Part shown: positions 10,062 to 60,925 of the stretch, one piece after another | Position numbering within the stretch: the stretch's first letter is position 1 | How the letters are laid out: every line of letters begins with the position of its first letter | Virus record (IMG/VR): IMGVR_UViG_3300033004_000001 | Location: 28,613-92,612 of that record | Reading direction: 5' to 3' (one strand) | Length of the DNA: 64,000 bases | DNA from: a virus | Program-made: the position numbers and the translations under genes | The notes under the pieces: generated by a model | Database searches by the model: none | The model's input: the letters and a program-made list of their open reading frames with translations, nothing else | What the model was told of the DNA's origin: nothing

Positions 10062-13000
10062 TAAACAACAGGCTCAACAGGAACCTACTCCATCTTGGGC
10101 ATTACAACGAAATAGACCAACTTATAATACTGTAACAGGAGAATTCTCTCCTGTTAGTTCTTTATTGGATAAAGATGAACATGAAAGAATAAAGAAGATT
10201 CCATTTACTGGAGGTAATGCTGCAACTTATTTAGGTGATGCTGGAGAATCTGTTTATGACAAAAATTTAAGTAGACAGAATATAGATCTTAAAGATGAGT
10301 TTAGAGGACAGAATCAACCTGCTATGGCGAAGCTTGGTGCTGGATTAGCTAAAGCATTGATTACTACTGGGACTACTGCAGCTGATGGAATAATTGGTAC
10401 AGCTGTAGGATTAGGTAATATGGCTGTTGAACAGAAAGGATCTGCATTTTGGGATAATCCATTTACTAATTGGATGAATGATATTAACAATAGTGCAGAA
10501 AAATGGTTTCCAAGTTATTATACAGAACAAGAAAAGAATGCTTCATTCATAGGACAATTAGGTTATGCTAACTTTTGGGGTGATAAATTTCTAAAGAATT
10601 TAGGATTTGTTGCTGGTATGGTTCTAGATGGAGTTATTACTGGTGGTGCTTCAATGGAAGCTTTAGGTGGTAAAGCTATTGCAGCTAAGTTACCAGAGGC
10701 TATAGCAAATGCTGCTTTAAAAGGATCTGAAGCTTTAGCTACTGCTAGTAAAGCTGGTGATATGATAGGATTAACTTCAGAGATAATAAATAATGCTAAA
10801 CAATTAAATAGAATTAACAAGATATCTCAAGGAGTTAGTAGCATATTATCTGCTCAAGGTATGTCTAGATTTATGGCTTTAGATGATGCTAATAGATTCT
10901 ATACTGAAAATTATCAGAAGTTACAACAGCAAATGCAAGATGGTAAGATAGGATTAGAAGATTATAATCTTAAAATGGCATCATTAAAGAAAGCTTCTGA
11001 AGGATATGGTAATGCTGACTTCTTAGCTAATGTAGTTGTATTAGGATTATCTAGTGGAATACAGTTTAAGAATTTATTTACTAAAGGATTTACTCCATCA
11101 GAAACTATTGCTAAAGGAATTGTTGGATCTGTAGAAGCTGGATATACTTATGAACGTCCAGTTATTCAACATGCTGCTAAAATTGCTAAGAATATATTAG
11201 CAGAGTCTGGAATGTTTCAAGAACAATATGCTGCTTCAGTAGCTACTAGTGATTTTTATCAAAAGAAATTTGATGGAAAGAAACAAGATAAGATTGATGA
11301 TATTTATCATTCTATTTATAAAGGGTTAGTTGATGCTTATGGAAGTAGAGAAGGATGGAATCAAGGACTACTTGGATCAGTTATAGGATTAATTGGCGTA
11401 CCTACTATTTCTAGTAAAGGATTAGATTGGGGTGGAGGTATTAGAGGAGATATTAAAGAGGTTAGAGAACAAAACGCAGCTAATCAAGAAGCTGCTAGAC
11501 GTCTTAATGAAGTTCTTAAATCTGATGATTTTAAGAATAATTATCAATCATTAATTAGAAATTTATCATTAGAAGATGAAAAGAATGAAGCTGCAGCTAA
11601 GGGAGATAAGTTTGAAGTTCTTAATAAACAACATGATCAATTTATAAATGATGCTTTACAATTCATTAGGGCTGGAAGATATGAAGACTTTCAAAATAAT
11701 ATTAAATTTATAAGAAATTCTAATGCTGAAGAAGTTAAACAGTTATTTAAAACTAAGACAAATGAAGATGTTACTAGAGAACTGTATGGATTAAAACCTA
11801 AAGCTTTAGAAGGACATGTGTTTGAGAAATATACAGCAGATGAGATAACTGATAAACTTAATGAGAATGCTAATAAGATGCTTTCAAATGCTAAGACTAT
11901 AAAAGATTTATATGACGCATATTCTGTAAAGTATCCTGGAATATCTGAAGATGCTAAAGAGTTATTAATATATACTGCATCTAAGCTAGAAGATATAAAT
12001 GAACGTCTTAATGATATTAATAAAGAATCTATTAATAAATTTGGATTAGATATTAACAATTATATCAAACTTAAGAAAGACGGAAATATAGATTTATCTT
12101 CTGTAGCAGAAGGTATGGAAGAGTATCAAAAGCATTATGATCAAGTAATAAAAGAACAAGAATTATCTGGTAGGTTTAATCCTGTAGATGTTGAAAACTT
12201 TGAAAGAAATTTTCAAGACTTTCCAAAATTAATTATTACTAAAGCAGATTTTATAGATTTATATAGACAGAATATAACTGCTAAAGGGCCAGAGAAAGTA
12301 CAAGAGACTATTAACAAAGCAGATGAAGAAAGAAAGACTGTAGAAGGAACTGCTGTAATTGAACCTATGCCTGATGATTTAGTCACTTATACTAATACTG
12401 ATGGAGAAACTAATGTATATAAAATTAATCAAATTGATGAGAATGATAATGTAACTTTAACTCCTACTGATACTGAAGGTGTACCAACTGGTGAGGCAGA
12501 TATAATAGTTACTAAGAATGATATCAAATTATATCAAAAAGAAGGAAAAGGTAAAGAAGAATTAAGTAAAACTGAACCTGTAAATGAAAGTGAAACTACA
12601 ACGGTTCCAAATAAAGAATTCTATCCTGAACATGGTAGAGGTCTTAGAGATGCATCTGTATCTATATCACATTCTCATTGGGATGGAAAGTTAGGTAAGA
12701 CAGTAATTAGAAATGAAGATTTTGATAAGTATATATCTTCACCAAAGAATGATATAACTAAAGATAAAGTTCAGTTTCGTATTGATACTGGTACTGAAGA
12801 TGAATATAAAAGTAGTTTATGGAGACTTCATAAGAAGATTAAAGCTAAGTTAGACAAAGGAGAAACGTTTACTGAGAAGGAAATTAGTGATATAGTTAAT
12901 TCTAGAAGAACTACTGAAGATAGAGATGAATATAATTCTATAGTTGATACATTACCAATTAAAATAGATTATATTACTAAAGATGGTGAAGTATTTGATA

Positions 13001-16000
13001 AAGGATTGTATTATCATGATAGTAATTTTATTCATCAGAATAAAGCTGGTGAATGGAATATCAGAATTCCTAGAGAGTATAAAACTCCAGAAGCAATTAA
13101 AGACTATGTACAATCAGAAAGAGAAAAAGTAAGACAGAATAGAAAAGTTTTACTAACTGCAATCTTATCTGGAAAAGATGTTATTCTTCATAATATTAAA
13201 AGAATAAGTTCTATTCCAAACAATACTGGAAAGAATAGAAATATTGATGAGGTATTAAGAGAAATAGATCCTGATATAAATACTAATACTATTGGATTAG
13301 GAATAGCTATTGGTAAAGGAAAAGAGAAAGGTATAATATGGACTGGGCATGGTAAAGATAATTTAAAAGGTACTGGAAGCCCTGGTCATGTATTCTTTCA
13401 AACTAATTTAACTAGTGATGGAGAACCAGAAACTATTAAAGCTAATATATCTAAGTTATCTCAAGAACATGCTAATATATTATGGGATGCTATAGTTACT
13501 AGATCTCGTAAAGGTAGTGGAGGTAATCAAGCTATACTACCAAATGAAGATGTACAAGGTCTTACAGTAGGAAATGTAATAAACTTATTAACTGCTTTTG
13601 GTAGAGGTACTGATATTAATCATCCAGATAATGTTGGAAAGAGTCATCTTAAAGATAAACAATTATTTATAGATAATAAACTTAATTTACATTATGGAGA
13701 TAATATAGTAGATCTACATGATGTACTTAAAGGAACTATAGATAGAAATAAGGCTAGAGATAAGTTTGTTAATTGGGCTGTTAATAATAAGAATTATAAT
13801 GTTGCTAAAGAAATTCCAGAGTTAGGAATAGAACTTAATGAACCTATGACTAGAAAATTTAAGTTAGGCTCATGGGTTAGTGATGGAACAGATACATATT
13901 CTGGTAGTCTAATTAAGAATGGATTTGTTCAAACTGATGTAGCTGAATTTGAAAAGTCTGGGTCGTTATTCCATGCTCCAGTTACTATGGTTGATTTAAA
14001 TGAATCAGGATTAGAAATTAAACCTACTCAACCAATTGTAAATAAAGCTAAGAGAGATGCTAAATTAGTTGACACTCAAGCTACTAAACCATCTAATAAA
14101 CCTAAGAATACTGGAACTAAAAAGATTGAAGCTTCAGAGAAACTTGATATTAAACCTAATGATTTAGAAAAGATTAGATCTTTACCAGTTGGAACTGATA
14201 TATATATTACTATACAAGGAACTGCTGGGGAAGGATCAGAAGTTAGAAAAACAGAAGTTCCAAAGTTATTTGTATCGGTAGTAGATAATAAAGGTAAAAA
14301 AGGATTTCAAATTCAGAATCCTAGAGCTAGAACTTATTTTGATATCTCTACGGCTGAATATATGGATGATCCAAATAAGATATTAGAAGTTGGAGATGAA
14401 TCAGTTAAACAATTATCTTCATTAATATCTCAATATAGTAAAGAGGGATTTGATGTTAATATAGATACTTCAAAAGCTATTAAGAAACCTATAGCTAAAG
14501 TTGAATCTAAAGTTGAAGAAGCTTATGAAGAAGCTAAAGAAAAATATGGAGAAGTATTAACTAAATTAGCAGAAGAAACTCCTCCTACTGAAGAAGAACC
14601 AATTGATATTAAATTTACTGGAGATCCATTAAATGATGTAGAAACTGATCCTGAAGGAGCTCCATTTAAAATGGTTTATGATGAATCTCGTAAATATAAA
14701 CCAGCTGAAATAGAAAAAGAAGTTAAATGGTTTCACGATAAGCTTGGTAAAGATATTCCAATTGAATTAAGAGAAGGATTAATTGATGTAGCTAAAGTTG
14801 GAGGTAAGAAAGCATTTGGACAATTAACTAGAGATGGAATTACTTTATCCAAAATAGCAGAAGAAGGGACTGTATATCATGAAGCATTTCATAGAGTATC
14901 CTTACTATATTTAGATCCTATTCAACGTGAAGAGATTTATAAAGAAGCTAGAAGTAAATATCCTGAACTTAGTAAATCTTCTACTGATAGAAGAGTAGAA
15001 GAAAACTTAGCTGAGAAGTTTAAAGATTATATTCAAGATAAAGAGAAGAATCCTGATCATACTTTATTAGGTAAGATTGGAGAATTCTTTCAAAATTTAT
15101 GGAATTTAGTTAAACAAATATTTACTGGACCAACTAGATTAACTAGTTTAGATATAGATAAACTATTTAGTTCTATTCAATCTGGTAAATTTAAATCTTA
15201 TAAACCGTTACAAGAGAACTTAGATAGATTAGGATTTGGTACATATGAATTAGAATATAAAGATAGACAGCTAGATAATGTTATCAACTTTAAAATGATG
15301 AAGTCCTTAATTAGAGGATTATCTAGTATGATAATGGAGCCTGTTAGTTATAAACTATTTAAAGATGAAGCTAGAACTAAGTATTCTAGTATTGATGTAA
15401 AAGATTCTTTATCAGCTATTAACTTTGGTGATCTAAGGAAGAAGATTGAGAAATTAAGAGATGATTATGATAAACATAATAATAGAAACAAGCAGGTAAT
15501 AGACATAATTGAGAAAGGGCAACTAACCCCTGAATTAAGCTCACAGTTGAAAGCAGAGTATGGAGTGGACAATACTACCAGAGTTGCTACAAATGCTCAC
15601 CTTGGGCTTGAAAAGGGCCTTAGACTGGCTTCTTTATATCAGGAGGTACTAGACAACTATGACACTATCTTTAAAGATGAAATTCAGAATTATATCTATA
15701 ACGAACTAGGAGTTAAAAGAATTGATAATGGTGATGAAGACGAAAGAGTAACTAATGCTGAGACAGCAGCACATGATACAGAGGCATATGAAAGGTCTGC
15801 TAAGGACAGTATTTCTAATGCTATTAAGTTTATGTTGCATGGGTTACATGCATCTGGAGATAAGAATCCTGATACTGGATTATGGGAGTTTGTACCATTT
15901 GATGAAATATGGAGTAGATTATCTAATGATTTACATAATAAGACTACCATAGAAGATATGATTAAGAAGCTTGATTCTTCAAATTATTTTCCATATGAAC

Positions 16001-19000
16001 AATTAGCTAAGAAACTAAAAGCTGGTAGTGAGTTATTAAGAACTCAATTCTATACATCTCTTAGAGGACATAGATATAATTTTATTAATGCTATGTTTAA
16101 AGAAGCTGCTGGTAGAAAGAAGGGAGAGTTACCAAACTTTTCAATGTATTTTACAGATGCAGATATTGAAAATTCTGCTAAGAATGCAGTTAGACTTTGG
16201 GGTGATGTATTTGCTATATCTGATTTAGTATCAGAAGGAGCAGTTAATACTAAGAAATTAGAGAAGATAATTAAAGACTTTGATAATATTATTGAAGATT
16301 ATAGAGAGGCTACTAATACTAAAGCTTTAATAAATACTGAAGATTATAAAGATAGATTAGTATCTATTCTTAAAGATATTCATATAGATGTAGATAATAA
16401 GACTATTGATAATCTATTAGGTGATATTATAGATAGTGGTAAAGCTGGTACTGAAGAATTGGCATTAGGACAATTAATAGAAGATAGATTATTTAATGGG
16501 TTATTTTCTACTAATAGTACTCTTTATAAATATGCTACTGGAGCTGATGTTAAATCTAGAGTTACATTAGAACCTAAGACATTATTTAGAAATGAGTCTA
16601 TAGTTACTGATTTATCTAGAGCATTTGCTAAAACTAACTATGAAAATATTTCAGATAATATTTCTGGAGCAGATGGAGGTAATAAACATGTATTTTCTAA
16701 GAATAGTTTAACTACAGATGTAATTCATTATTTAAAAACTGATGATGAATATTTAGATAAACTATTATCAGATGTATCTTCTAAATATTCACATTATCTT
16801 AATCAAATAAAAAATAATCCTAGAGTTAGAAATAGACTTAAAGTTGGAACATTTAATGCTTTGATTAAAGATAATAGTTCTGATTCTGGTAGAGATTATC
16901 TAGATATATCTCCTACTGAAGATTTCTTATATAAACTCAATGCTACTAGATTTGGAACTGGGAATATGATTCTTCCAACAATTGCTGGTAGAAAAACTTA
17001 TTATACTTTAAATGGATTTGATAGAATAGAACTTAAGTATCAGAAATTACCTTCTGGAGAACTTGTTATTCCAGATGATATAATTGATATATTTTATAAG
17101 TATGCTCAAGGAGAAGCTAATAAGATAGAGAAAGCTTGGCAGACTCTTAAGAAGTATAGTAAACTAGATGAAAAAGGTAACGTTATAAAAGGTACTACAG
17201 ATTTTAAAAATCTTGTTGATAACTATCATTATGTTAAAGAAGGGAAGGTTAATAATATAGATAAAGGACAGGCATATAAGTATCAACATATGTTTGAATC
17301 TTTTAATGAAAAAGGATTTGATATAAAGAATGAAGCAGATGTAAGAGATAGAATTAGAAAGATATTACAGAGTGATATAGATGCTACCATTGAATATGCT
17401 AAAGATAATGATATAATAACTTCTACAACTAAAGATAAAAAGGAATTATTAGCTCCTAAGCTTCTTGATAGAGATATGGTATCTGAATTAGCTAATAAGA
17501 GTTATGGAGGAGATATAGATGCAGCTACCAGGTCAATATTAGCTGATTATACTGTTAATACTAAGATATCATCTATTGAGACTATGATGATGTTTATGGG
17601 TGATATATCTTTCTATTTTGATAAAAAGACTGAAGATCCAGCAGTTGATTATGCAAAACGTTTAGCTGTATTAATTTCTACTGGAACTAATTATAGAGAG
17701 ACTATACCAGTTGATTTTGAAAATCCTACATATGGAGTTATTACATTAACTGAACAAAAATTAAATAGTAAATATCTAGATCTTATCACAGATAAGTATA
17801 GGGAAATGTTACTTAAAAAGTATAATAAAGAACAAGCAGAAGAAATATTATCAAAACATCTTAAAGCATATGAAGATATTCAACCAACTGATGCTATGGT
17901 ACTTATTTCTCCTAATATGTATAAAGGAGAATCGCTTCGTTTAGGTGAATGGGGTGATAAAGAAGAAGCTGCTTTTAATATACTTAATTCTGATAAAGAA
18001 TTGTCTCCAGAAGAAGAAGCTATAGCATTAGGAATATCTGAGAAACCATTAAAAGATGTATATTTTGAGAGAGTTAGTTATGATATAGATAATGATAATA
18101 AACTTCTAATTCCTACTTTTGATAAGATGGCTAAATTTACATTAAATAGACGTCTTGTAAAAGGAACTTATTTTGAAGACTTATTAGATAGAATGGAAGC
18201 TGTTGGTAAGTACGAAGGTCTTGAGAAAGTATGTGAAGCTAAATTTACTACTGCAGTTAAAGTTGGAAATAGACAATCAACTGAATACTTTAAGAATCCT
18301 AATACTAATGAACAATCAGTTACTGATTTAACAAATGTTCCAATACGTCAACAAAGTTTTAAATTCTTACGTCGTCAGGTTAATACGGATCCTCATGAAG
18401 AACAAAAAGTTCTCTATGGAACTCAAGCTAAGAAGGTTACACTGCTTAATATATCAAATGATAATGATTATAATTTAGGTGGTAAATCTACAAAAGGGTT
18501 AGACATAAAGAGAAATATTACAAAATCTTTAACTACATTATCAGATAAAGAAACTAATAGACTTCTCGATAAACTTGGTGCAGATTTGAAGACTGGTAAG
18601 ATGGATTCTGATCTATTCTACAATACATTATTAGCTGATGCTAAGACAGCTGGTATGTCATATCCAGTTCAAGAAGCATTACGTAGACATATTCCAATAG
18701 ATTTACTTCCTGAAAAGAAATGGATATTGCAGAGATTTAGCGCAATGGCTAATAAACATGGAATAGATGTCCATTTTCCTGGACAACAGTTAATATTAAT
18801 GTCTGGATATGGATTAGGATTAAAATCAATTCCTGATGAAACTAATAATTTAAGATTCTTATTTGATGAGAAAGGTAAACTTTCAGGATCTGAAGTAAAA
18901 TTACCAGTTCATGTATTTAAAGATGTTATTCCTAACTATGAGAATATGAGTTGGGAACAAAAAGTTGAATGGTTAAAAAAGAATCCTAATATGTTGGAAG

Positions 19001-43021: not shown

Positions 43022-44453
43022 ATTTTTCTCTTTGTAGTTTAATCTGCTCTTTTGTTCTATGTCTCTTATGAACTACTATCTTTTTAACTTTAGTTTTATT
43101 TCTAAGACCAAAGTCTTTGTCTCCCCATTTCTTTTTCTTTTCTTCTTTATTAGTAGTCCAAGGTGGATGTAATTCAGGGTAATTTCTTTTGTAAGTTACT
43201 ATTTCTTCAATTTTCTTACTACCATCCTTCATCTTAGTTATTAGAACTCGTTTCTTGGGCTCTAAGGAGCTCACCATTGAACGATCTCCATTAAGTTGAT
43301 GTATAGTATCACTTTTCATATATCGTTCAGCTACGGCTTTATAATAAGGCTTTACTGTTTTTAAGACAACCTTATCTTTATACATTTTATTGTATGCTTT
43401 AGTTATAGCTTTTCCTTTACTGGAAGCTTTAACTACAAACTTCTTTTCTTCATATATTTCTTTTCCAACTGCACTTGGAATATCTTTAATAAGAGTTACA
43501 TTCCAGAAAGTTGACTTTTCTTGTATCCTACCTGGATGAGATCTTTTAGATTTATATCCATTTGAAGTTAAAATTCTTTTAGTTGAACTCTTTGGTGGAA
43601 TATATTTTTCTCTAGGAGTATAAAATTGATTTCCTAAAGCTGGAGTTAATGAATTTCCAGCAACTGGTCTCATTCTTCTTTTACCTTCTTTTTTAGATAT
43701 ATATTCCCATTTATCTTTACCAGTATTTGGTGATCCAAGATAATTTGGGCCATTAGCTTCCCACCAAGGAACTCTAGCTATTTGTTTACCATCTTTAGTA
43801 GCTATATATACTAATCTTTTTGGAGATTTTTCTGGTTGTCTAATAAAATGTTTAAGCCTATCCTCTCTTCCTTTGATAGTCCATATTGGTTTCCATCCTT
43901 CTTTTATAGAAGTAAATCGTTTAGTATATTTATTAATATTATCTACTATAGTTAAAAATTTAGGAATAATTGGTTTTAATATATTTATTGATTTCCATAT
44001 TATTTTTCCTTTTTTCTTTCCTTTTATAAATATATGATTTATAAATGTATTTTTTATATATAAATTAGATAATATTTTTAAATTAGGTCTTATTAAATCA
44101 AAATCTAATTTATACTTTGATTTTTCAGTTTTACTTTCATATACTGGCATATTGTCAATTTTTTCAGCTTTCTTAATCCGAATATATCCATTTTCTAGAT
44201 AATTCTCCAGCCATTTTTGTACATGTTTATGATCATTATTATTTCCTACTATGTATTCTTTCCAAAATGGTTCTATTTCAAAATCAGTTGGTGCATAGAA
44301 AGGTCTAGTTTTACCTTCTTTAGTTCTAGTTATTGTAAGTTCTGCGAATTCATATTTAAATCCTTCAACAAACTCTTCTTTAGTAGGAATTCTATATTGA
44401 TAACACCAATCTCCATAGTCTTTATATTTACACCATATCGCTATTGGATTCAT
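42993..44453 (-). CDS. highly basic hypothetical protein
   Basis: 486 aa, K/R-rich; N-terminal YRIPTKEEFVEGFKYE. Confidence 0.6.
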   Translation of the reverse strand: MNPIAIWCKYKDYGDWCYQYRIPTKEEFVEGFKYEFAELTITRTKEGKTRPFYAPTDFEIEPFWKEYIVGNNNDHKHVQKWLENYLENGYIRIKKAEKIDNMPVYESKTEKSKYKLDFDLIRPNLKILSNLYIKNTFINHIFIKGKKKGKIIWKSINILKPIIPKFLTIVDNINKYTKRFTSIKEGWKPIWTIKGREDRLKHFIRQPEKSPKRLVYIATKDGKQIARVPWWEANGPNYLGSPNTGKDKWEYISKKEGKRRMRPVAGNSLTPALGNQFYTPREKYIPPKSSTKRILTSNGYKSKRSHPGRIQEKSTFWNVTLIKDIPSAVGKEIYEEKKFVVKASSKGKAITKAYNKMYKDKVVLKTVKPYYKAVAERYMKSDTIHQLNGDRSMVSSLEPKKRVLITKMKDGSKKIEEIVTYKRNYPELHPPWTTNKEEKKKKWGDKDFGLRNKTKVKKIVVHKRHRTKEQIKLQREKYELNHSDKG

Positions 44454-44769
44454 ATTTAAATTTTAACTTTTGATGTCTTAGTCTTCTATTATTGACTTTC
44501 TGCATCTTTTTTTCATTATTTGGTTGAGATCTACAAATTCTTCCATCTCCACTTCTAATAGGATTAATTAGAGTAGGTAATTGTCCTGGAAATCTTTTAG
44601 GTTCTCTTTTATTTTGTTTGTCTATTTTTGGTTTCATACGTTTGTATTCATGATTCATTCTCCACATTAACATTTCATAATGTCTATTATAATTCCTTTT
44701 TCTTTCTTCTTCTGTAAACGGATATGGATAGAACTCATGATCTGGTATTGGTCTATATTCTTCTATCAT
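44428..44769 (-). CDS. basic hypothetical protein
   Basis: Coupled to ung (ATGA overlap). Confidence 0.5.
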   Translation of the reverse strand: MIEEYRPIPDHEFYPYPFTEEERKRNYNRHYEMLMWRMNHEYKRMKPKIDKQNKREPKRFPGQLPTLINPIRSGDGRICRSQPNNEKKMQKVNNRRLRHQKLKFKYESNSDMV

Positions 44770-45449
44770 ATCTGCCAGTTTATTTCTGTTAATCCCTGAC
44801 TTGCAAGGATTTTATTAGTTTGACTGAAATGTTTACATCCAAAGAATCCATAAGTTGCTGAATATGGACTAGGATGAGCTGCTTTTAATACATAGTGTTT
44901 CTTTATATCTATTAGTTTTTCTTTTTCTTTTGCGTAATTACCCCATAATAAGAATACTATTCCTGATCTGTATCGAGATAATTGAGTAATAGTACCATTA
45001 GTTAGAGTCTGCCATCCTAATAATGATCCATGAGATTTTGATAATCCTTTTCTAACTGTTAATACTGAATTTAATAAAAGAACTCCTTGATCAGCCCATT
45101 GCTGTAAGCATCCGTGTTCTGGAATATCTATTCCAATATCTGAATCTAATTCTTGGAATATATTATGTAGTGATGGCGGAATATCCATTCCTTCTGAAAC
45201 TGAGAAAGCTAATCCATGAGCTTCTCCTTCATTGATGTATGGATCTTGTCCTATTATAACTACTTTAGTACTTTCAAAGGAACAACTATTATAAGCGTTT
45301 AGAATATTTGATACTTCTGGATAGATTATATAGTTTTCTCTTTCTTCCTTTAATATTTTCATAGTTTTTTTAAAACTATCAGATATGAAATAACTTTTTA
45401 ATATTTCATACCATCCATCTTCTATCTGAAGAATATCAACTTGTTTCAT
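44766..45449 (-). CDS. ung: uracil-DNA glycosylase, family 1
   Basis: KVVIIGQDPY, AHGLAFSV, PPSL.NI, WADQGVLLLN, FLLWG, HPSP. Confidence 0.95.
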   Translation of the reverse strand: MKQVDILQIEDGWYEILKSYFISDSFKKTMKILKEERENYIIYPEVSNILNAYNSCSFESTKVVIIGQDPYINEGEAHGLAFSVSEGMDIPPSLHNIFQELDSDIGIDIPEHGCLQQWADQGVLLLNSVLTVRKGLSKSHGSLLGWQTLTNGTITQLSRYRSGIVFLLWGNYAKEKEKLIDIKKHYVLKAAHPSPYSATYGFFGCKHFSQTNKILASQGLTEINWQI

Positions 45450-45450
45450 T

Positions 45451-45657
45451 TTATTCAGAGAATTTACTATTAATTGAACTACTGATTGGATCTTCTTCTC
45501 CTTTAAGTTCTTTACATCTTTTCCAATAATAATCTGAATTTAGATAAGGTTTAGCTAATTCTAATTCAGATAATCTAGTTTTATCTTCTACTACTTTACA
45601 AGTTGATTGTATACAAGTAGTTGGATCTTTTGGACATTGTTCACATATTTTATTCAT
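45451..45657 (-). CDS. small Cys-containing hypothetical protein
   Basis: CxxC...C...C; coupled ORF. Confidence 0.45.
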   Translation of the reverse strand: MNKICEQCPKDPTTCIQSTCKVVEDKTRLSELELAKPYLNSDYYWKRCKELKGEEDPISSSINSKFSE

Positions 45658-46081
45658 CTTCTTCTAATTTTTCATTTTTGATAGCATCTTGAATTAGTTT
45701 ACAGTTAAGTTTGATTTCCTCTTCTGTACATAATAAGTATAATAGACAATCTTTACATTTATCATTAAGGCAGTCTATTCCTGCTTTTATTCTTCTATTC
45801 ATCTCAGCAATAACCAATGATGTTCCTATTGTCATTTGCTCGAGTTTAGTTTTTTTATGAATCTGTTTAAGATAGTCTAATGGCCATTCTCCTTTCGGAA
45901 TATTTGCTTCGTTTGATAATAAACAATAATGTCCAAACATTAGAAGTTGTCCTTTAGTATACTTTGCATCAGTTTCTGGAGTGAATCCTAATTTTTTATG
46001 ATTAAGTAATTCATCCATAACTAATCTTAATGCTTCATTTTCTTTTATAAGATCTAAGTATTTATTAATTATTTCTTCCAT
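45650..46081 (-). CDS. phage hypothetical protein
   Basis: GFTPETD..Y..GQL...WP...LVIAEMNR resembles a widespread phage G(W/F)TPEHDD...WP...ALIxAEIxR family; Cys-rich tail. Confidence 0.5.
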   Translation of the reverse strand: MEEIINKYLDLIKENEALRLVMDELLNHKKLGFTPETDAKYTKGQLLMFGHYCLLSNEANIPKGEWPLDYLKQIHKKTKLEQMTIGTSLVIAEMNRRIKAGIDCLNDKCKDCLLYLLCTEEEIKLNCKLIQDAIKNEKLEEDE

Positions 46082-46095
46082 AATTTTAAGTTAAA

Positions 46096-46117
46096 AAGCC
46101 CCTAATTAAAGGGGCTT
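46096..46117 (-). terminator. intrinsic terminator
   Basis: AAGCCCCT-aattaa-AGGGGCTT with T-run on minus strand. Confidence 0.75.
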
Positions 46118-46136
46118 AGAATACAAAAGTTTATTT

Positions 46137-46658
46137 TTAATTCTCCACTGTATCTAAGAAATCACTCATTTCTTTAGTAATCTCAATAGAGATATTATTA
46201 TCTTTATTAAATTTAGCTACTTTTTCTCTTATTAATCGAATATCTTTATCAAGTTGTCTTGTTGATTCAAGTATATCTTTTAGTTTAAGAAAAGCAACTT
46301 TTTCAGTTACTATTGGTTCATTTATTTTTCCTTCGGTAGTATCTATTCTGAGTAAATGAGATTTCTCTCTTTCTAACTCAGATAGAGTTTTGATATACCA
46401 AGCATTACAATTTTCTTCGTCCTTTGATTTTTTGAGATTTGTGGACATAATAGCTAAGTAGAGAATCTTTAACAAACTAGATTTCATCTCTTTATTTTTT
46501 CTTAGCTTTTCTATGTCAACTGGCCTGTTATTTCCAACTGTAATTGAATTATGTTTTTCAATTAATTTGTTGTCATAATCTATACTAAGAGTTTTTCTTC
46601 TATCTTCAAGAATATTCTTAAGGTCAGTAGCTTTTTGAAGATTTAATATTCTTTTCAT
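46137..46658 (-). CDS. helical hypothetical protein (weak DIP1984/DUF6847-like pattern)
   Basis: L..A..LKN.L ... L.LAI...N ... I..LSEL ... I.E.V..FN; by-eye similarity only. Confidence 0.45.
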   Translation of the reverse strand: MKRILNLQKATDLKNILEDRRKTLSIDYDNKLIEKHNSITVGNNRPVDIEKLRKNKEMKSSLLKILYLAIMSTNLKKSKDEENCNAWYIKTLSELEREKSHLLRIDTTEGKINEPIVTEKVAFLKLKDILESTRQLDKDIRLIREKVAKFNKDNNISIEITKEMSDFLDTVEN

Positions 46659-46705
46659 TTGATTTATTTAGTAAATCTGGCCACTTTTTGATCTACATGA
46701 AATTA

Positions 46706-46793
46706 ATAATCCCCAGATCATCATCTTAATACATACTTGGGAAAAATTTACTTCGCCTAAGTGTCTAGCATTTAGATTATATCTAGGGATTAT
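46706..46793 (-). promoter_or_regulatory. intergenic long-stem RNA element
   Basis: Minus ATAATCCCTAGAT / ATCTGGGGATTAT, 13 bp including one G-U, plus inner helices. Confidence 0.65.
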
Positions 46794-46807
46794 ATATTAT
46801 TAAGCGT

Positions 46808-47446
46808 TTACATTAACGCTATAAATGACTTTATGCTTTTTATTGTTATTACAGAGTCTTCATTAAGATAAATCTTGTTTTGTTTTGCAATTGTTGAGTT
46901 TTTATCTCCAACTACATAACTATCAGGCTTTCCAATTGTACTTGGCCTAAAGATTGCCAAATATAAATCTACGGAATTATGTATTTTATATTTCTGACTG
47001 ATAATTAACAAGTATTTCCTCACATAGTCTAACTGATCTAATGTACACATCCTTTTTAATTCTGATGTATCTGTACCTAAATAATTAGCTGTACTTGGAA
47101 GGAATCCTATTAAACCAGTTGCTCCACTATATGGATTAACTGCATCAGGATTTCCACCGCTTTCTGGTTTAAAGACTTTGTATAACCATTTTGATTGAAT
47201 TCCTACTTCTTTACAAATTTCTCTAACTTTTAATCTACATTGTTTATCAAATTTGTCAGTCATTTTAAGTTTTCTTAAAGTAATTAGATCTTCATGATCA
47301 TCTTTTTCTAAGATTGCTTGAGTTTTTATAAAGTTTTCCATCCCAATTTGCTCTTTTACTATTCTATTTTGTAATTCAATTGGTAAATTTGGAGCAAAGA
47401 TTAACTGAGATAAAAATAGTAGAAATACTATTAAATAGTTTTTCAT
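46808..47446 (-). CDS. lytic transglycosylase (SLT-like) with N-terminal signal/anchor
   Basis: Catalytic ES motif in PESGGNPDAVNPYSGATGLIGF; hydrophobic N-terminus. Confidence 0.8.
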   Translation of the reverse strand: MKNYLIVFLLFLSQLIFAPNLPIELQNRIVKEQIGMENFIKTQAILEKDDHEDLITLRKLKMTDKFDKQCRLKVREICKEVGIQSKWLYKVFKPESGGNPDAVNPYSGATGLIGFLPSTANYLGTDTSELKRMCTLDQLDYVRKYLLIISQKYKIHNSVDLYLAIFRPSTIGKPDSYVVGDKNSTIAKQNKIYLNEDSVITIKSIKSFIALM

Positions 47447-50154: not shown

Positions 50155-50673
50155 TTAATTTTGATTAATAAAAATTCTGTTTCTGATTGGATTGATTATA
50201 TTTTCATACATCCAAATAGCTATTTTAAGCAATGGATGATTTATTACTTTATCATCTGATTCGTAGATATCAAATTCTTTTATCCACATAGGTTTGTTAG
50301 AAATTGAATATCCATTTGATACTTTATTTAAATTTTTAATCAGTTTAGGATCTTTTACTACTTCGTAGTATAGTTCACATCTCTGAACTGCTATATTGTA
50401 GTCTGTATAGTCTTTATAAATCTTTAACCATACATTAGCAAATGGTGACCTTGTACTTCCCCATTCTCCTTTTCTACAGCCTTTTTTACCATTTATAGAC
50501 CATACATCTTTATATGGCTTTAAGAAGATATAGTTTCCAGTGTCTTTTACTGTAGAAAAATTCTTGAACTTTTGATATGTCAATTTAATTCCTCCAACTC
50601 CAGGATCTTTAACTGCAACTCCTGGTGGAACTACTTCTGGTGCTTTTATGTCTAGTAATATATATTTGGCCAT
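50155..50673 (-). CDS. hypothetical protein
   Basis: ORF track; preceded by AATCCACTAA motif. Confidence 0.6.
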   Translation of the reverse strand: MAKYILLDIKAPEVVPPGVAVKDPGVGGIKLTYQKFKNFSTVKDTGNYIFLKPYKDVWSINGKKGCRKGEWGSTRSPFANVWLKIYKDYTDYNIAVQRCELYYEVVKDPKLIKNLNKVSNGYSISNKPMWIKEFDIYESDDKVINHPLLKIAIWMYENIINPIRNRIFINQN

Positions 50674-50699
50674 TATTATATTTTTGTTAGTGGATTATT

Positions 50700-52180
50700 A
50701 AAAAAGATAAGTAGTAAAATATTACCATAACATAGACTTACCTAAGTTTACCTATACTATGAATATAGTTTAGCGCAAAGTACAAGTTTGTTCTAATCTG
50801 ATATATTTGAATAATACTTTACTACTCACTATATTTCATGCTTTGCACTTTGTTTTACTTCCCTCTGCTTGGGAATCTTCTTATGTTTTTACTTTCTGCT
50901 CTAATCCTCCTCAATTTAGACTCACTTCAGCTGCAATAGCACCAAATTTACAGTTTGGTTATGATTCTCCACCTATTTTGATTTATTAGAACATACTCAC
51001 TTTTTCGCACTTTTGTTATGCTTATATTATTCTCGAATGAATTTTCATTTTGCTCGCTGTACTACTTCTGTTTTCATACTAAAGCATAAGGACTAGTTTA
51101 ATGCGCTAACCCTCGCCTTTAATATTTAGAATAAACTTTTATAAAGCCTATATTATAAATTAGCTACTTCTGAGGTGTGTACCATTACTTCACTTCTAAG
51201 AATCAGTGCCATATTGGCTTACTTTCGTCATTACTGACCAGGTAAGATTCAGAATTTACTATTTTATTTTATAGAATCTAAATATTAAATCCAATTTAAT
51301 TATAAATCCAAAGCTACTATCTGTTTTATTGGTTCTCTTACAACAATTGGAGCTTCAAATTAAAATCCTTATTTATTAAGGCAGATTCAAATGACTAAAG
51401 TCATCTTATTATACTAGTCTCATGTAATTTGGACTTAAGGACATCGTATAACTCTAACATCATTTCATTATTATTTTATCTGCTAAGCAGATGAGATACT
51501 TTGACCTCTAATAACTTTCTATCAACCTTCACTTATTGGATTATATTTATCCATAATACTTGAACTTCTTTCAGGTTCCCTAAGTTTTTATGCAGAAGGA
51601 TGACTGTTCTTATTAGTACTGACCTAAAGGTCTAATGTCGATCGCAGATCATCTGATTATAGACTCGTATTTTATAAGTTAAAGTAGATGGGCTGGTCTT
51701 ATTTAGGAACCAGTCGATCCTTACCATACAAGCTCTTCGAAAGAGGAATTACTAGTACAGTCTACCGAGGCATTTTCCATCACTCCTATCCGGTAGTTTT
51801 CTTCACAACCTTAGTAAAGCATAGTTTCAGGAATTTCACCTTATCGTTGCCGTTATGTTGGATATAGAAGATAATTTTAAAGACTTAGTAGAAACTTGGA
51901 GCTGTAAGTCTTATAGCTTACAAAGAATCACCCGACTCTTAATTAGTATAAGATAGCTAATCAAATACTCAAGACCGACTGGCTCTACGTATTATAGTTG
52001 ATCAGACTGAAATATACTAAGACTCCAAGTTTACTTTACCTTTAGACTTATACTACTTACGTAATTTTCATACAAATCTTTAAATTATATGTTATAGTAA
52101 TTGAACCTCGAATTCGTAATTATAAGTTCGCTACAAACCATCTATAATGCTTTACAGTGCGCATTTTGAGCCTTGCTCAT
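50700..52180 (-). ncRNA. candidate ~1.5-kb structured non-coding RNA
   Basis: No credible ORF in an otherwise gene-dense genome; many local hairpins and 8-15-bp long-range complementarities (see findings). Confidence 0.5.
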
Positions 52181-52182
52181 AG

Positions 52183-53667
52183 TTACACTTCCACTATGTT
52201 ATCATTGTGATCATACTTAAACTGTTTATTCCAGATAAGTATTCTAGACACAGGTATATCTAATTTTTCAATAAAACTATTGATAATATTTTTTATTTCT
52301 TCTTCATCACTAATTTTCATGCGTTCGGCTTGTTCAAAGTCTATTCTGACTAATAAATAAGGTTCTTCTTTATCTTTTAGTGACTTTCGAATAATACATT
52401 CTTTAATGAATGGTATGTTTTTTAGAATATCTTCTATTCTTCTTGATTGAATAGTATAGTTGTTTGTTCTAGATATAAAATAGATATTTCCATCTTTATC
52501 TTTTATTCCTAAATCATTTAGACTATCGGTTAAGTAATGAATAACATTATCTATTATATAAATACCAATGATTTCTTTTCCAACTGATTCAATTTTATGT
52601 TCAGATGGATGAGAATATGTAGCTATTCCGCAAGTTTCTACAGTACCATAAGTTACTGTGTATGGAAACTTAATCTTCTTTAAGATCTTCTCTATATGTA
52701 ATGGTAAAGAAGAATTAAGAATTATTAATTTCTTTATATCTGGAAAAATTCTATGTAATCTATTATTTATAACTAATTCCTTAATCACAAATAAAGATTT
52801 ATAAGATCTTATGGATATAACTACTTTTAGTTTTTCTTTAAAAGTAATATGATCTTCAGTAATTTCTTTATACAACTGCATAAATTGATGTGCACTTAAA
52901 ATAATGATTGGCATCTTATGAGATTGTACATAAAAATGAAAGTTATAGTTAATTTCAGTAAATGGTGCTATTCTATTAGGAATTATTATTATTGTATTAC
53001 TAATTAATGGAAGTAACATCCCTAATATATAGTTATACGAAAATTGAGGATATGCAGGATACTCAGTTTTTGATTCGAATATCTCTTTATTTTTTAGTTC
53101 TCTTAACAAAACGAGGATCTTATTGAATGATATCTTTACTTCTTTTAACACATTAGGAGTATAAATGATAACATTATCTCCTTTTCCTCCGAATGTTGCA
53201 TTCCTGATAGAATGTCTTAGAACTTCATTTATATGTATACTTTTAGTACTAAGTGGTTCAATAATAGATTCAATATCTAAAATAACTCCTAAAAATAGTC
53301 TATTAAGTTCTTTTCTTCCATTGTCTTGGTTTCTATCTGTTATTAGAATATCGGCTGATAATAGACAATGTAATGCTTCTTCAATTTCTGTTAGTGGCGA
53401 TATTATTATTAAAGTATTGTTACTTAGAATTGTAGCAAGAAATACAGTAATCCATTCAATAGAGTTATTAGCATAAAGAGCTATTCTCAGTTTTTTATCT
53501 TCACAGTGAACATGTCTATATATCCAAGGAGTATTGAAACTTTTTGATAGTTCAATGACATTTCTAAATAAATCAATATATTTTATTGATTTAGTATCGT
53601 GAATAATAGCAATATCATTCCAAAAAGATTTAATTGCTATTACTATGTATCTTAATAGTTCTTCCAT
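52183..53667 (-). CDS. degenerate long-chain acyl-CoA synthetase-like (ANL/AMP-binding) protein
   Basis: IALYANNSIEW..VFLA, FPYTVTYGTVETCG, ESVGK, DLG..DKDG.IYFISR, IE..L...PFIKEC; P-loop TSGTTG missing. Confidence 0.7.
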   Translation of the reverse strand: MEELLRYIVIAIKSFWNDIAIIHDTKSIKYIDLFRNVIELSKSFNTPWIYRHVHCEDKKLRIALYANNSIEWITVFLATILSNNTLIIISPLTEIEEALHCLLSADILITDRNQDNGRKELNRLFLGVILDIESIIEPLSTKSIHINEVLRHSIRNATFGGKGDNVIIYTPNVLKEVKISFNKILVLLRELKNKEIFESKTEYPAYPQFSYNYILGMLLPLISNTIIIIPNRIAPFTEINYNFHFYVQSHKMPIIILSAHQFMQLYKEITEDHITFKEKLKVVISIRSYKSLFVIKELVINNRLHRIFPDIKKLIILNSSLPLHIEKILKKIKFPYTVTYGTVETCGIATYSHPSEHKIESVGKEIIGIYIIDNVIHYLTDSLNDLGIKDKDGNIYFISRTNNYTIQSRRIEDILKNIPFIKECIIRKSLKDKEEPYLLVRIDFEQAERMKISDEEEIKNIINSFIEKLDIPVSRILIWNKQFKYDHNDNIVEV

Positions 53668-54050
53668 TATAATTTAGATTTTTCAAATTCATAAATTACT
53701 TGAAAATTTTCTTTAGTCTCGGAACTTATTGATCCAAGTAGTCTTTCGACTTTATAAGTTTCACAGCTTGATGCTATAGTTATAATATATCTCTTAGCAT
53801 GATCATTCTTCTCTGTAATATTAGAGATAATAATAGCCATTGTTGATTGTCCAGATTCAGTTGTATCTTTGATTACAAACTCTGAATTGGGATGTTCATC
53901 TATGAACTCTTCTATTCCTTCTTGACAGCTTTTCATCTTTGATTGTTTATTAAGCTTTCCGATGGTTTTTCCTTCAACAACAAAGTTGAAAAGCCATAGT
54001 TTGAACATATGATCTAATAGCTCTTGACTATTTTTGGATGTTGTTATCAT
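53667..54050 (-). CDS. hypothetical protein
   Basis: Coupled ORF (TAATG). Confidence 0.55.
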   Translation of the reverse strand: MITTSKNSQELLDHMFKLWLFNFVVEGKTIGKLNKQSKMKSCQEGIEEFIDEHPNSEFVIKDTTESGQSTMAIIISNITEKNDHAKRYIITIASSCETYKVERLLGSISSETKENFQVIYEFEKSKL

Positions 54051-54052
54051 GG

Positions 54053-54589
54053 TTATTTATGTTTTGGTTCATCTAATAATGTATACAAATATCTATTAAT
54101 ATCTAAATCATTTCCAAATACATCTTTTTGATTTGATAATATTGGACTAATTTGATCTAGTGGATATAATGATCCTTCTAAAATATTATATATATTATCA
54201 TGATATTCTGATAAAAATAGTATATAATATCTTATAGGCCCAACTGGATTACCATATATGTCTTTATCTCTTTCAAGTTCTAGACGAATAAAACCTTGTT
54301 GCATCTCTCTTCTAGAGAATGCCCAATATTTCCAGTCTTCTTCATACCCGACAAATTTCTTATTTTGAAATAATGGTCGTAGTCTGTTTTTTATTTGTAT
54401 ACTTATTTCTAACTGTCTTTCAATATTTTCGTCTATTTGTTCTTTGTAGTATTTTTTAGTAAATAATCTTACTGGAATTCGATTAGCAAGATCTTTAGTT
54501 CCTTCGAGTTGAATTTTATTCAATTTTAGAGCAATAATAATCTTTGAAAGATAAATTATTTCTTCTATTACAGTTCTTTCTCGTTCCAT
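54053..54589 (-). CDS. hypothetical protein
   Basis: ORF track; preceded by TAACCACTAA. Confidence 0.55.
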   Translation of the reverse strand: MERERTVIEEIIYLSKIIIALKLNKIQLEGTKDLANRIPVRLFTKKYYKEQIDENIERQLEISIQIKNRLRPLFQNKKFVGYEEDWKYWAFSRREMQQGFIRLELERDKDIYGNPVGPIRYYILFLSEYHDNIYNILEGSLYPLDQISPILSNQKDVFGNDLDINRYLYTLLDEPKHK

Positions 54590-54618
54590 TTCTTTATTAA
54601 TTAGTGGTTAATAAAAAA

Positions 54619-54673
54619 GATAGAGGACGACGTCAAGCGTCAAACCATCTGATACAGCTGGCTGTCCTCTATC
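54619..54673 (-). promoter_or_regulatory. intergenic long-stem (three-way junction) element with U-tract
   Basis: GATAGAGGAC...GTCCTCTATC enclosing two small hairpins; TTTTTT follows on minus strand. Confidence 0.65.
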
Positions 54674-54694: not shown

Positions 54695-57628
54695 TTATTT
54701 ATTCTTGTTTTCTAATAATTCTAAAGCTTTTCTTTGTTTCGCTTCTTTTTCATCAGCTTTTCGTTTAAGCATGTCTGCTTCAAAAGCTTTAGCTTCTTCA
54801 GTTTCATTGAAAGTTTTCATTTTTCTAATAACTGAAACAATATGATTCATTATTTCAGATCTTGGAGTATTATCCCACTTACGATTCTTACTTAAGTAAT
54901 TATCAATAAGTATATCCATTCTTTCAATAAAAGTTAATTTAGATTCAGTATCAAGAATTATTTCTGATATTAACTTGTTTACTACTTTCTTATCTTTCTC
55001 TTTTTCAATGAGAAGACATTTAGCAATAATACTATCACTATTCTGATTTGAAGTATTCACAGTAGCAAAAGCTTCCTTTTTTTTCAATTTTGCTTGTTCG
55101 GCAGCTAAATCTACTTTTGATTGATCCTGTACAGTTTCCTGTTGGTTTGAGTTCGCAGAATCTTCTACCTTTTCTGAGTTCCCAAGGTTTGTCTGGGACT
55201 GTTTCCCAGATAAAGCTTCCCCCAACTCAACATCTTTTTTCATGCCCGCTGCATCGGAAGCATTGACTATAACTTCCTTTAAAGTACCAGCAGGTTTCTC
55301 TGGTACATTCTTCTCCGGAGTGGATGTAGTAGGCTTTTCCTTCAATCCAGATTCTTTTGCAGACTGCTCCGCTGATTGGGAGCCTTTTACTTCCCCCAAC
55401 TTAGAAGTAGAATTTACAGAGTTCCCATCCTTTTTCTGTACTACACCAGCACTCTGTATAGTTTTGTTTGATACGTCTCCAGCTGGTAGTGGTATTACAG
55501 AATTCGAGGCAGGCTTGTCTATCATATTCGTATCTTTCACACCATCCACAGGTTGTTTCCCATCTTTCTTCTTTTGTTGTTCTGAGGTCTTCTTCCCAGG
55601 ATTGTTGGCGTTTTTTGGTTCACCACCTTTCTTCTCTGATGAGTCGTCGGCCTTTTGTGTACCAGAGGACTCTTTTCCTTTTAAAGGGCTTGTTCCAATT
55701 CCGAGCTCTTGCTCTTTATCTTTGATATATTTATCTCGGAATGTAAGCCACCAATCAAATACTTTCTTATTGTCCCAATCTTTACATTCTTTGAAGTTAC
55801 GTAAATGTTGTTGACTTAAACCACAAGCAATCATTGTTTTAGTATGAGATTTTCCATCTACTGCTGATTTGAGATCTACTTCTTCAGTATCACTCATCAT
55901 TAATTTAAGATAAGCAATAAAATCTCCTAAACTTTCACATTCAGTAGCTTCTTTCCATATTACAGGAAATTCAGTTTTAATATCAACTGGTTTTGGTAGT
56001 GGAACATGTTTAGATGTTTCAGCTGGTTTATCATCTTCTTTTTTTACTTCGTCAACGATAACAGCATCAGAAATAATACTATCACCAGATATTTCATTCC
56101 AAAGCTCTATAGCATCAAACTTCTTATTTTCTTTTTTTAACTGATGTTTATATTTCTTTAGAATCTTATTAGTAGTATCATATCCATATTTGTCATGAGC
56201 ATCGACAGCCTGTTTAACCTCTTCTCTGATTTTCTTTTCTGTTTCACTCATTTCTTTTTCTTTCTCAGCAAGTTTAATAGCTTCTTCTTCAGCTTTAGCT
56301 ACGATTTCTTCCTTTTTAGTAGGATCAGTAGCAGCAGCCGGTGGTGGAGTTACTATAGGAGTAGTAGCAACTGTAGGTTCAGGAATAATTTTATCTTTTC
56401 CTAGAAATTCGGAAGCAATTGCTGCCCATACTCCATTAATTTTAGCTTCGTCCTTCTTATGTTCATAATCAGTAACTAATTGAATTCCTTCAATAAAATA
56501 CTTACGAGTTATTATGATTTTCTTTTCTCCTAAGTTTTGATCTTTTAACATTGCAAGACACTTTGTTTTAAGATCAGCTAAGTTACCTCCTTTGAACGGA
56601 TCAACTTTTATAGGCGTTAAAGATTCTCCTGTGAATATAAACTTTTTGGAGTCAGTTGTAAGAAACTTTGCTTCTGTTTCGCTAATAGCTTCCCATTGAA
56701 TCTCACTAGATTTAATCTTTAATTCCTTGGCAACTTCAGATAATATTTCATCCTCTAGTTCTACATTAATCTTCTGAAATTCAATTATTTTATTTCTGGT
56801 TCCAATTGAAATATATCCAGGCTTACCTTTTTTTATTGTAGATTTAATATCTTTGACTGCTTGTTTAATAACATCGACTTTTGTTTTTATTATTTCTCTG
56901 GAGTTATTCAGGAAATTAACCCAGTTAACTAGGACTAAGTCTTTTAATTCTCTTCTTTCAAGATTAAGTTTAACTCCTTTACAAATAGGTAGAAGTTCAA
57001 ACATAAATTTTTCTTCAATTACCTCTCTTGGAAATCCAATTTTACTAAGTCCAAACTTTTCAGCTAAGTCGATAGAAAGATTTAATGCGTCTTCCTCTTT
57101 ACCTTCTTTGATAAGAATTGTAGCTACTTCATTAATTTTCTCCATACTATCAGCCAGAGGAATTAGTTTTTGAAGTTCAATTGAAAATTCTGCTGGAGTT
57201 CCAAAGATAACTTTTCTCTCATATCCTTGAAAATATTTATTTTTTTCTTTCTTCTCAGCAGAATCTTTTCTTGCTGGAATTTTTAGCTTACCATCTTTAG
57301 TATAGTCAGCCATCTTAACATTTTTATTAGCTTCAAAGTCAATTTCAGCTTGAAGAGCATCTGCAGATGGAGTATATAATCCAAATGACATTCTCATTAA
57401 TGCAACTTTAAAATCTGATAATTCTTGAAGATATCCAAGTTGAATTTTAGCATTTTCTACAATTTTTTTATCTGTATGTAAAGCTTGTTTTTCGTAAAAA
57501 TCAACTAAATCTGATAAATGTTTAGGATCTGTATTTACAGCATTTATTAAAATGTTACGATCTATATCTTGAACTTCTTTTAATATTTGTGATGGCATTT
57601 TTCCTGCCACTCGTAATGCAATACTCAT
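54695..57628 (-). CDS. large hypothetical protein with disordered K/E/S/Q-rich region
   Basis: 977 aa; Pro/Thr/Ala linker and ~200-aa low-complexity stretch. Confidence 0.65.
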   Translation of the reverse strand: MSIALRVAGKMPSQILKEVQDIDRNILINAVNTDPKHLSDLVDFYEKQALHTDKKIVENAKIQLGYLQELSDFKVALMRMSFGLYTPSADALQAEIDFEANKNVKMADYTKDGKLKIPARKDSAEKKEKNKYFQGYERKVIFGTPAEFSIELQKLIPLADSMEKINEVATILIKEGKEEDALNLSIDLAEKFGLSKIGFPREVIEEKFMFELLPICKGVKLNLERRELKDLVLVNWVNFLNNSREIIKTKVDVIKQAVKDIKSTIKKGKPGYISIGTRNKIIEFQKINVELEDEILSEVAKELKIKSSEIQWEAISETEAKFLTTDSKKFIFTGESLTPIKVDPFKGGNLADLKTKCLAMLKDQNLGEKKIIITRKYFIEGIQLVTDYEHKKDEAKINGVWAAIASEFLGKDKIIPEPTVATTPIVTPPPAAATDPTKKEEIVAKAEEEAIKLAEKEKEMSETEKKIREEVKQAVDAHDKYGYDTTNKILKKYKHQLKKENKKFDAIELWNEISGDSIISDAVIVDEVKKEDDKPAETSKHVPLPKPVDIKTEFPVIWKEATECESLGDFIAYLKLMMSDTEEVDLKSAVDGKSHTKTMIACGLSQQHLRNFKECKDWDNKKVFDWWLTFRDKYIKDKEQELGIGTSPLKGKESSGTQKADDSSEKKGGEPKNANNPGKKTSEQQKKKDGKQPVDGVKDTNMIDKPASNSVIPLPAGDVSNKTIQSAGVVQKKDGNSVNSTSKLGEVKGSQSAEQSAKESGLKEKPTTSTPEKNVPEKPAGTLKEVIVNASDAAGMKKDVELGEALSGKQSQTNLGNSEKVEDSANSNQQETVQDQSKVDLAAEQAKLKKKEAFATVNTSNQNSDSIIAKCLLIEKEKDKKVVNKLISEIILDTESKLTFIERMDILIDNYLSKNRKWDNTPRSEIMNHIVSVIRKMKTFNETEEAKAFEADMLKRKADEKEAKQRKALELLENKNK

Positions 57629-60624: not shown

Positions 60625-60925
60625 AAGTAGACTAGTATCAGTCTTCAGAATATAATGGAAACGATTTTCTTTTTAAAGCCTATTTTTCCTATCTATGCTT
60701 CGCTATCCCCAACAGCTTCTCACTTCTGTTGTATCAGTTTATATAGCAGTGAGACTATACTTATCTGATATGGTTCCATTTTTATTCTTGTTGGTGCAAG
60801 CTTTCACTCTGCATTTTATACAATGACGCTTGGCGACTTTGTATAATCCGACTTGTGACGGTCATTACTGTTGATACATTTTCATTTGGCATGTGATATA
60901 TCTTTCATAGTTGCATTATATTGTT
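60625..60925 (-). ncRNA. candidate ~300-nt structured RNA
   Basis: ORF-free; multiple nested and crossing helices. Confidence 0.4.

Follow-up and report, generated by a model that had tools for sequence, protein, structure and literature searches.

What does a crAss-like phage keep in 1.5 kb of DNA that holds no open reading frame? One large interval of this kind is present in the 64,000 nucleotides of viral DNA analysed here (the window), and a preliminary description, made from the letters of the window only, had proposed that it encodes, on the minus strand, a large structured phage RNA of a new class. Crassvirales are among the most abundant phage groups, and each new giant RNA has opened new RNA biology. 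To our knowledge, very large folded RNAs lacking a known job, such as GOLLD, ROOL and OLE, are rare, and long early non-coding transcripts of Crassvirales have been seen once, in phage phi14:2, and were never explained. The proposal was supported by the lack of any Rfam match, by the presence of homologues and by covariation within these homologues. Positions 50700 to 52182 (minus strand, about 1,480 nt) very probably encode a conserved, pseudoknotted structured RNA; the interval is ORF-free, has homologous gaps in seven other distinct contigs and shows covariation. With the same high confidence we assign this RNA to a family of large structured RNAs that had not been catalogued before and that occupies a fixed position in an environmental lineage of crAss-like phages.

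Genomic context of the ORF-free interval

The window corresponds to bases 28613 to 92612 of a complete virus record of 92,612 bp with direct terminal repeats of 127 bp. The genome is crAss-like, as seen from a match to the Crassvirus muzzle protein (Pfam crAss_MUZ, E 8e-192); the nearest named phages by this protein are Suoliviridae from four subfamilies, at 28–31% identity. Up to about 29.4 kb of the window the genes are encoded on the plus strand, and beyond this point, as far as the right end, on the minus strand; the GC skew turns at this junction (genome position 57–58 kb), away from the RNA locus. The polymerase would lie about 8 kb from the RNA, with the RNA upstream. The ORF-free interval spans 50674–52182 (1,509 nt) between two minus-strand genes at 50155–50673 and 52183–53667. 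It contains no ORF of at least 100 aa under table 11, table 4 or a code with TAG read as Q, in agreement with its earlier description as the sole large ORF-free interval of the window. A second, smaller ORF-free interval is found on the same arm at 60625–60925. ARAGORN detected no tRNA within 50674–52182 or elsewhere in the window.

Downstream of the RNA, the gene at 50155–50673 (ATG at 50671–50673) encodes a 172-aa protein of unknown family. On the other side, the stop codon of the gene at 52183–53667 abuts the RNA. Its product, a 494-aa protein of the ANL (AMP-binding) type (PF00501, E 2.7e-7), has remote similarity to MenE and to the A-domains of NRPS. Two conserved minus-strand genes for proteins of 127 and 178 aa (53667–54589) would form the head of a unit with the order 178aa-127aa-ANL-RNA. 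Among seven neighbouring proteins the ANL-type protein was the sole one with a Pfam match and none matched PHROGs; a look-up of the 127-aa and 178-aa proteins in the ESM Atlas returned nothing usable. Further upstream, a GC-rich island (55100–55700, 0.42–0.45 compared to about 0.27 around it) lies inside a 977-aa ORF, and a 190-aa ORF is present at 55242–55814 on the strand opposite to the latter.

In the consensus of the ANL-type family (alignment A3), IIYTPN stands in place of the canonical ATP P-loop, and YGR in place of the C-terminal SGK-type motif; the YGxxE, D and R motifs are retained. The protein may be a pseudo-enzyme or have an altered chemistry, and the changes in the P-loop and in the SGK motif would suit a protein that binds rather than catalyses.

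Homologous gaps in related phages

About 20 homologues of the ANL-type protein with 29–52% identity were present in a large protein collection, several of them on contigs of 92–96 kb. With the protein and its alignment as queries, nine usable loci were retrieved from IMG/VR and from JGI metagenomes. In eight of the nine, an ORF-free gap follows directly after the ANL gene, which amounts to seven distinct contigs besides the window and answers the call of the preliminary description for homologues in crAss-like phages. The gap measures about 1,440–1,500 nt in L003 and its near-twin L004, 1,378 nt in L010, 1,293 nt in L011, 1,149 nt in L016, 939 nt in L015 and 922 nt in L018; in L014 it is at least 1,053 nt long, being ended by the contig edge. 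Across the family, the lengths therefore extend from 0.92 to 1.5 kb (922–1,509 nt), and the carriers are crAss-like phages of about 93 kb. The ninth locus, the distant fragment L019 (30% identity), has a 168-aa ORF (L019:617–1123) directly after the ANL gene and no gap, and is the sole ANL locus of this kind. Around the gap, gene order is kept on both sides as 977aa-178aa-127aa-ANL-[gap]-172aa-197aa and onwards. The flanking proteins are 31–51% identical, whereas blocks of 92–329 nt within the gap are about 80% identical, the most distant relatives included, and the substitutions in the gap show no 3-nt codon periodicity. One relative, L003 (IMGVR_UViG_3300014204_000140), carries a tRNA (68 bits) at 1108–1180, which lies upstream of the ANL gene at a distance of about 5 kb.

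Searches of 50,697 phage records with the RNA (blastn) and with the ANL protein (tblastn) gave zero matches. DNA-pattern scans of IMG/VR (three) and of GTDB genome contigs (one) revealed no members beyond the ANL-linked loci; the candidates that they returned (L006, L021–L024 and L025–L070) were chance matches, mostly in coding DNA. A covariance model restricted to the core, R1 (111 nt), matched the genome of every family member exactly once, with E values from 1e-11 to 1e-21, and found nothing else.

Covariation and the folding strand

Nine sequences were aligned with plain MAFFT, fitted to no structure (alignment A4). Stacked compatible column pairs were then searched for on this alignment, and RNAalifold was run. 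Ten helices with 63 pairs were obtained, in which 93.7% of the cells are standard pairs, compared to 77.9% after shuffling and 32–47% when the partners were slid. Changes on both sides were seen for 44 of the 63 pairs, against 21.2 ± 2.8 in shuffled alignments (0 of 500 reached 44) and 7–10 with partners slid by 1–3 columns, and the covariation score was 0.541, against 0.238 (shuffled) and 0.07–0.11 (slid); since the alignment holds few lineages (eight distinct ones, with two close pairs, L003/L004 and L015/L018), the counted cells do not represent independent events. Because sliding leaves the relationships among the sequences intact, the excess of covariation cannot be put down to common descent. 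G-U or U-G occupied 46 cells and A-C or C-A 11, which identifies the minus strand as the folding strand.

Folding energies were unremarkable. Over the 883-nt 5′ part (51300–52182), the minimum free energy z-score was −1.34 for the minus strand and, similarly, −1.13 for the plus strand, and the folding energy of 200-nt windows resembled that of flanking coding DNA. The energy check proposed with the preliminary description hence gave a z-score of only about −1.3 on the folding strand. The inverted repeats listed there are present at their given coordinates (I1, I6, I7, I14), but the complementarity of the interval, described as rich, does not by itself exceed chance. The sequence of the window alone would leave the claim of a structured RNA open; it is the comparative evidence, not the folding energy, that supports this reading.

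Predicted architecture

All features of the predicted fold lie on the minus strand. At the 5′ end, a hairpin GAGC-AAG-GCUC (52168–52178) begins 4 nt after the ANL stop codon. By eye, other small hairpins take its place in the relatives, namely GGA..UCC in L010, GGG..CCC in L014 and CAAG..CUUG in L016. The 5′ domain is closed by the long-range helix P1 (52156–52149/51820–51813), of which seven of the eight pairs changed on both sides and 95.7% of the cells are paired. Within this domain, P1b is formed by the inverted repeat I14, AAACUUGGAG (52032–52023) with CUCCAAGUUU (51901–51892), and encloses P2. In A4 the counterparts of P1b are misaligned; in all seven relatives examined, an equivalent helix with unrelated sequence adjoins P2, reaching 22 bp in L011 and 13–15 bp in L015 and L018, with one compensatory change between the latter two. 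P2 (52019–52013/51950–51944) and P2a (52008–52000/51962–51955) both show covariation on A4; together they comprise 15 pairs, 12 of them changed on both sides, and 98% of the cells are paired.

P3 (51850–51846/51809–51805) surrounds an invariant hairpin, GG-UGAAAUU-CC (51841–51829), and the 3′ strand of P1, and is followed by the invariant GAAGAAAA. Because it surrounds the 3′ strand of P1, P1 and P3 cross as a pseudoknot, and both helices show compensatory changes. Two hairpins come next, P4 (CUACCGG...UCGGUAG, 51796–51790/51768–51762), with the conserved GGAGUGAUGGAAAA in its loop, and P5 (CUGGU..ACCAG, 51713–51709/51697–51693), with a conserved CAKCUAC next to it; all pairs changed on both sides in P4 (7/7) as well as in P5 (5/5). 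P6 (51684–51681/51530–51527) surrounds an expansion of about 150 nt (51531–51680) that is found only in this phage and in L003/L004. The invariant GUUGAUAGAAAG forms the basis of a second domain. P7, in which the invariant GUUGAUA (51526–51520) pairs with 51319–51313, varies on one side only, P8 (51515–51507/51475–51467) has six of nine pairs changed on both sides, and the invariant GAUAGAAAG sits between the two. The invariant unpaired stretches GAAGAAAA, GGAGUGAUGGAAAA, CAKCUAC, GAUAGAAAG and GUCCAAA are purine-rich, which is the usual look of tertiary contacts or protein-binding sites and might indicate such a function here.

The variable 3′ domain (50830–51312) contains a purine-rich tract and aligns well only with L003 and L011. 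The plus-strand GC skew of −0.29 and AT skew of −0.27 at 50750–51049 confirm the minus-strand purine bias noted previously. Within the tract, a Shine-Dalgarno-like GAGGAGG (50906–50912) has no start codon after it; UGAGGAGGAUU also occurs in L011. Considering the expansion in P6 and a 3′ third that aligns only between the window, L003 and L011, the family can be described as a core of 600–900 nt with lineage-specific expansions. With alignment of this third limited to such close relatives, the locus may yield one 1.5-kb molecule or two or three adjacent RNAs; no helix was identified that joins the 5′ domain to the 3′ domain.

The individual pairings put forward in the preliminary description fared unevenly in this comparison. 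Those at 52147/51814, 52023/51892 and 51791/51762, which correspond to P1, P1b and P4, were conserved with compensatory changes in the relatives, and the same was found for the 15-bp stem between 50812–50826 and 50710–50724. The 13-bp pair 51118/51277 was only partly conserved. The pairs TTAGCGCA/TGCGCTAA, TGTTCTAAT/ATTAGAACA and TTATGCTT/AAGCATAA were not conserved, and the pseudoknot suggested from pairs of this kind has to be replaced by that of P1 and P3.

Ends of the RNA and transcription unit

At the 3′ end, a terminal stem of 15 bp (50826–50812/50724–50710) encloses an insert of 87 nt and is followed by UUAUC and six U (50705–50700). This element is a probable terminator or 3′ end. L011 and L010 preserve the stem through compensatory changes, and in L003, L011, L010 and L016 it is likewise succeeded by a U-run. 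A simple terminator scan made no call on it, which is explained by the 87-nt loop. Outside the RNA, a leader- or promoter-like motif, AATCCACTAA (50687–50696, minus strand), precedes the ATG at 50671–50673. The motif A(A/T)CCACTAA is present in eight exact copies between 50687 and 63580 (50.7–63.6 kb), every one of them on the minus strand, compared to 0.58 expected. A similar arrangement is seen before the 178-aa gene (about 54600–54670, minus strand), where a stem (GATAGAGGAC...GTCCTCTATC) and a U-run are followed by AACCACTAA, about 12 nt and an ATG. The order stem, U-run, A(A/T)CCACTAA and ATG is thus common to 54.6 kb and 50.7 kb, and looks like a terminator combined with an early promoter or leader signal. 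A sigma-70 promoter scan stayed at chance level (12 sites, 10.9 expected).

No punctuation made of stem, U-run and motif separates the RNA from the ANL stop codon, which points to one unit, 178aa-127aa-ANL-RNA, ending at about 50700. We infer from this arrangement that the RNA is the last element of an early or middle transcription unit.

Alternative explanations

The main rival to an RNA acting in trans is a giant structured 3′ UTR acting in cis, which would stabilise or time the 178aa-127aa-ANL operon, or exert an antitermination-like control over read-through into the next unit. Such a function would agree with an RNA that always adjoins the same gene, abuts its stop codon without promoter-like punctuation and ends at a unit boundary. 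However, an RNA of 0.9–1.5 kb that has a pseudoknotted core as well as invariant loops goes far beyond what known stabilisers or attenuators need, and the core is much better conserved than the genes it would regulate. We consider a 3′ UTR unlikely, at a small but appreciable probability. A self-splicing group I or group II intron, or another mobile ribozyme interrupting a gene, would fit the size and the pseudoknotted multi-domain fold, and introns are common in crAss-like phages, with a homing endonuclease annotated in cr114_1. Yet no group I or group II covariance model matched the window or seven homologues at E values up to 5–10, the ANL protein is full-length, with a common C-terminal end in 19 homologues, and downstream lies a separate gene with its own leader motif and start codon. 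The locus also holds no endonuclease or reverse-transcriptase ORF, and its position is fixed in all relatives, not sporadic, so that an intron is highly improbable.

Two further readings, an origin or terminal repeat and a decayed reading frame, had already been raised with the preliminary description, and neither left its signature. A large conserved non-coding region on the arm of the replication genes might be a DNA-level element with hairpins formed in DNA, serving as replication origin or for packaging or recombination. G-U pairs, however, are tolerated on one strand only (46 versus 11 cells); furthermore, no tandem repeats or iterons were found at 50674–52182, the cumulative GC skew turns at genome position 57–58 kb and not at the locus, and the 127-bp terminal repeat is located at the genome ends. 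This explanation is very unlikely. The weak z-score, and the stop-codon recoding that occurs in Crassvirales, could be taken to speak for chance complementarity in AT-rich DNA or for a decayed or recoded protein gene. Against this, no ORF appears with TAG read as Q or TGA as W, all eight lineages lack ORFs here, codon periodicity is absent and the covariation is far above both controls, which leaves this reading scarcely credible.

Proposed role

For the conserved structured RNA, a trans-acting role as a scaffold or as the RNA of an RNP with an ANL-like partner is put forward tentatively. The preliminary description had offered, as guesses, an action together with the phage translation factors or a use as a decoy for host defences. 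The RNA would be transcribed as the tail of an operon comprising the 178aa, 127aa and ANL-like genes, without promoter-like punctuation of its own. The transcript would end at the conserved long stem and U-run, and the RNA would be released from the operon tail. Its 5′ domain is closed by P1, which is pseudoknotted with P3 around the invariant GG-UGAAAUU-CC hairpin. Stable and compact, the RNA might then act in trans while the host is taken over, either providing a scaffold or supplying the RNA half of an RNP; as judged from synteny, its likeliest partner would be the ANL-like protein, which the same transcript would encode. The fixed link between the RNA and an ANL-fold protein that lacks the P-loop offers a concrete and testable binding hypothesis.

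Comparison with known large RNAs

No Rfam 15 family matched the window or seven homologues at the gathering score or at E values up to 5–10, the non-matching families including GOLLD, ROOL, group I and group II introns, RNase P and tmRNA. A match of CRISPR-DR63 at 50852–50892 (18.9 bits, E 8.7) was below any useful threshold and was discarded. With GOLLD (RF01998) and ROOL (RF03087) the predicted fold shares a large size, several domains, a pseudoknot, a phage-borne location and lineage-specific expansions. It differs from them in that no covariance model matches, no tRNA is nearby, the RNA is longer, the phage group is another one and one protein gene is linked to it. GOLLD and ROOL RNAs reportedly self-assemble into multimeric cages.

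Long early RNAs have been described for the crAss-like Cellulophaga phage phi14:2, in which two long early intergenic regions outtranscribe most genes and persist through infection; the role of these RNAs (g004–g006 intergenic regions) was left undetermined (Drobysheva et al., bioRxiv 10.1101/2020.03.07.982082). The corresponding region of phi14:2 (NC_021806, 2905–4601) is likewise ORF-free and located on the early arm a few kb upstream of the DNA polymerase, and both loci measure 1.5–1.7 kb. In contrast, homology was not detected by nhmmer, blastn, core motifs or R1 (the best match, E 0.6–0.9, was inside a CDS), the neighbouring genes are others, and the phage collection, phi14:2 included, gave no ANL match. 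We found no published structure or covariation for the phi14:2 RNAs. Among Suoliviridae, cr114_1 (NC_055897.1) has a 2.1-kb ORF-free gap at 12629–14737 on the polymerase arm. The Suoliviridae stretches differ from the present locus in being about 2 kb or more long, compared to 0.9–1.5 kb here, and in having no adjoining ANL gene. R1 (111-nt core), nhmmer and blastn detected no similarity in three Suoliviridae genomes, remote homology being possible; extreme divergence or an independent origin could account for this. Weak R1 matches in the genomes of phi14:2 and Suoliviridae fell inside annotated genes and were rejected.

The present RNA would thus be a third large early RNA locus in Crassvirales, unrelated in sequence to the other two or very diverged from them, and, as judged from the sequences compared, the only one of the three that is tied to an ANL gene. 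It is conceivable, though we would not call it probable, that it represents the RNA half of a new kind of RNP, or a large ribozyme or self-assembling RNA, and that giant early RNAs are general to crAss-like phages. If so, a giant early RNA would be a general and so far unrecognised organ of crAss-like phage infection, here with an ANL-fold protein without canonical ATP P-loop as its partner, and with non-homologous giant RNAs at the equivalent sites of Suoliviridae and phi14:2. Covariation supports the family itself, whose members reach 1.5 kb and whose predicted pseudoknotted core is far better conserved than the surrounding proteins; its alignment and core model provide a handle for finding further members. 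ORF-free stretches of about 2 kb also occur in two other Suoliviridae, at 44402–46861 in cr50_1 and at 16869–18957 in cr4_1.
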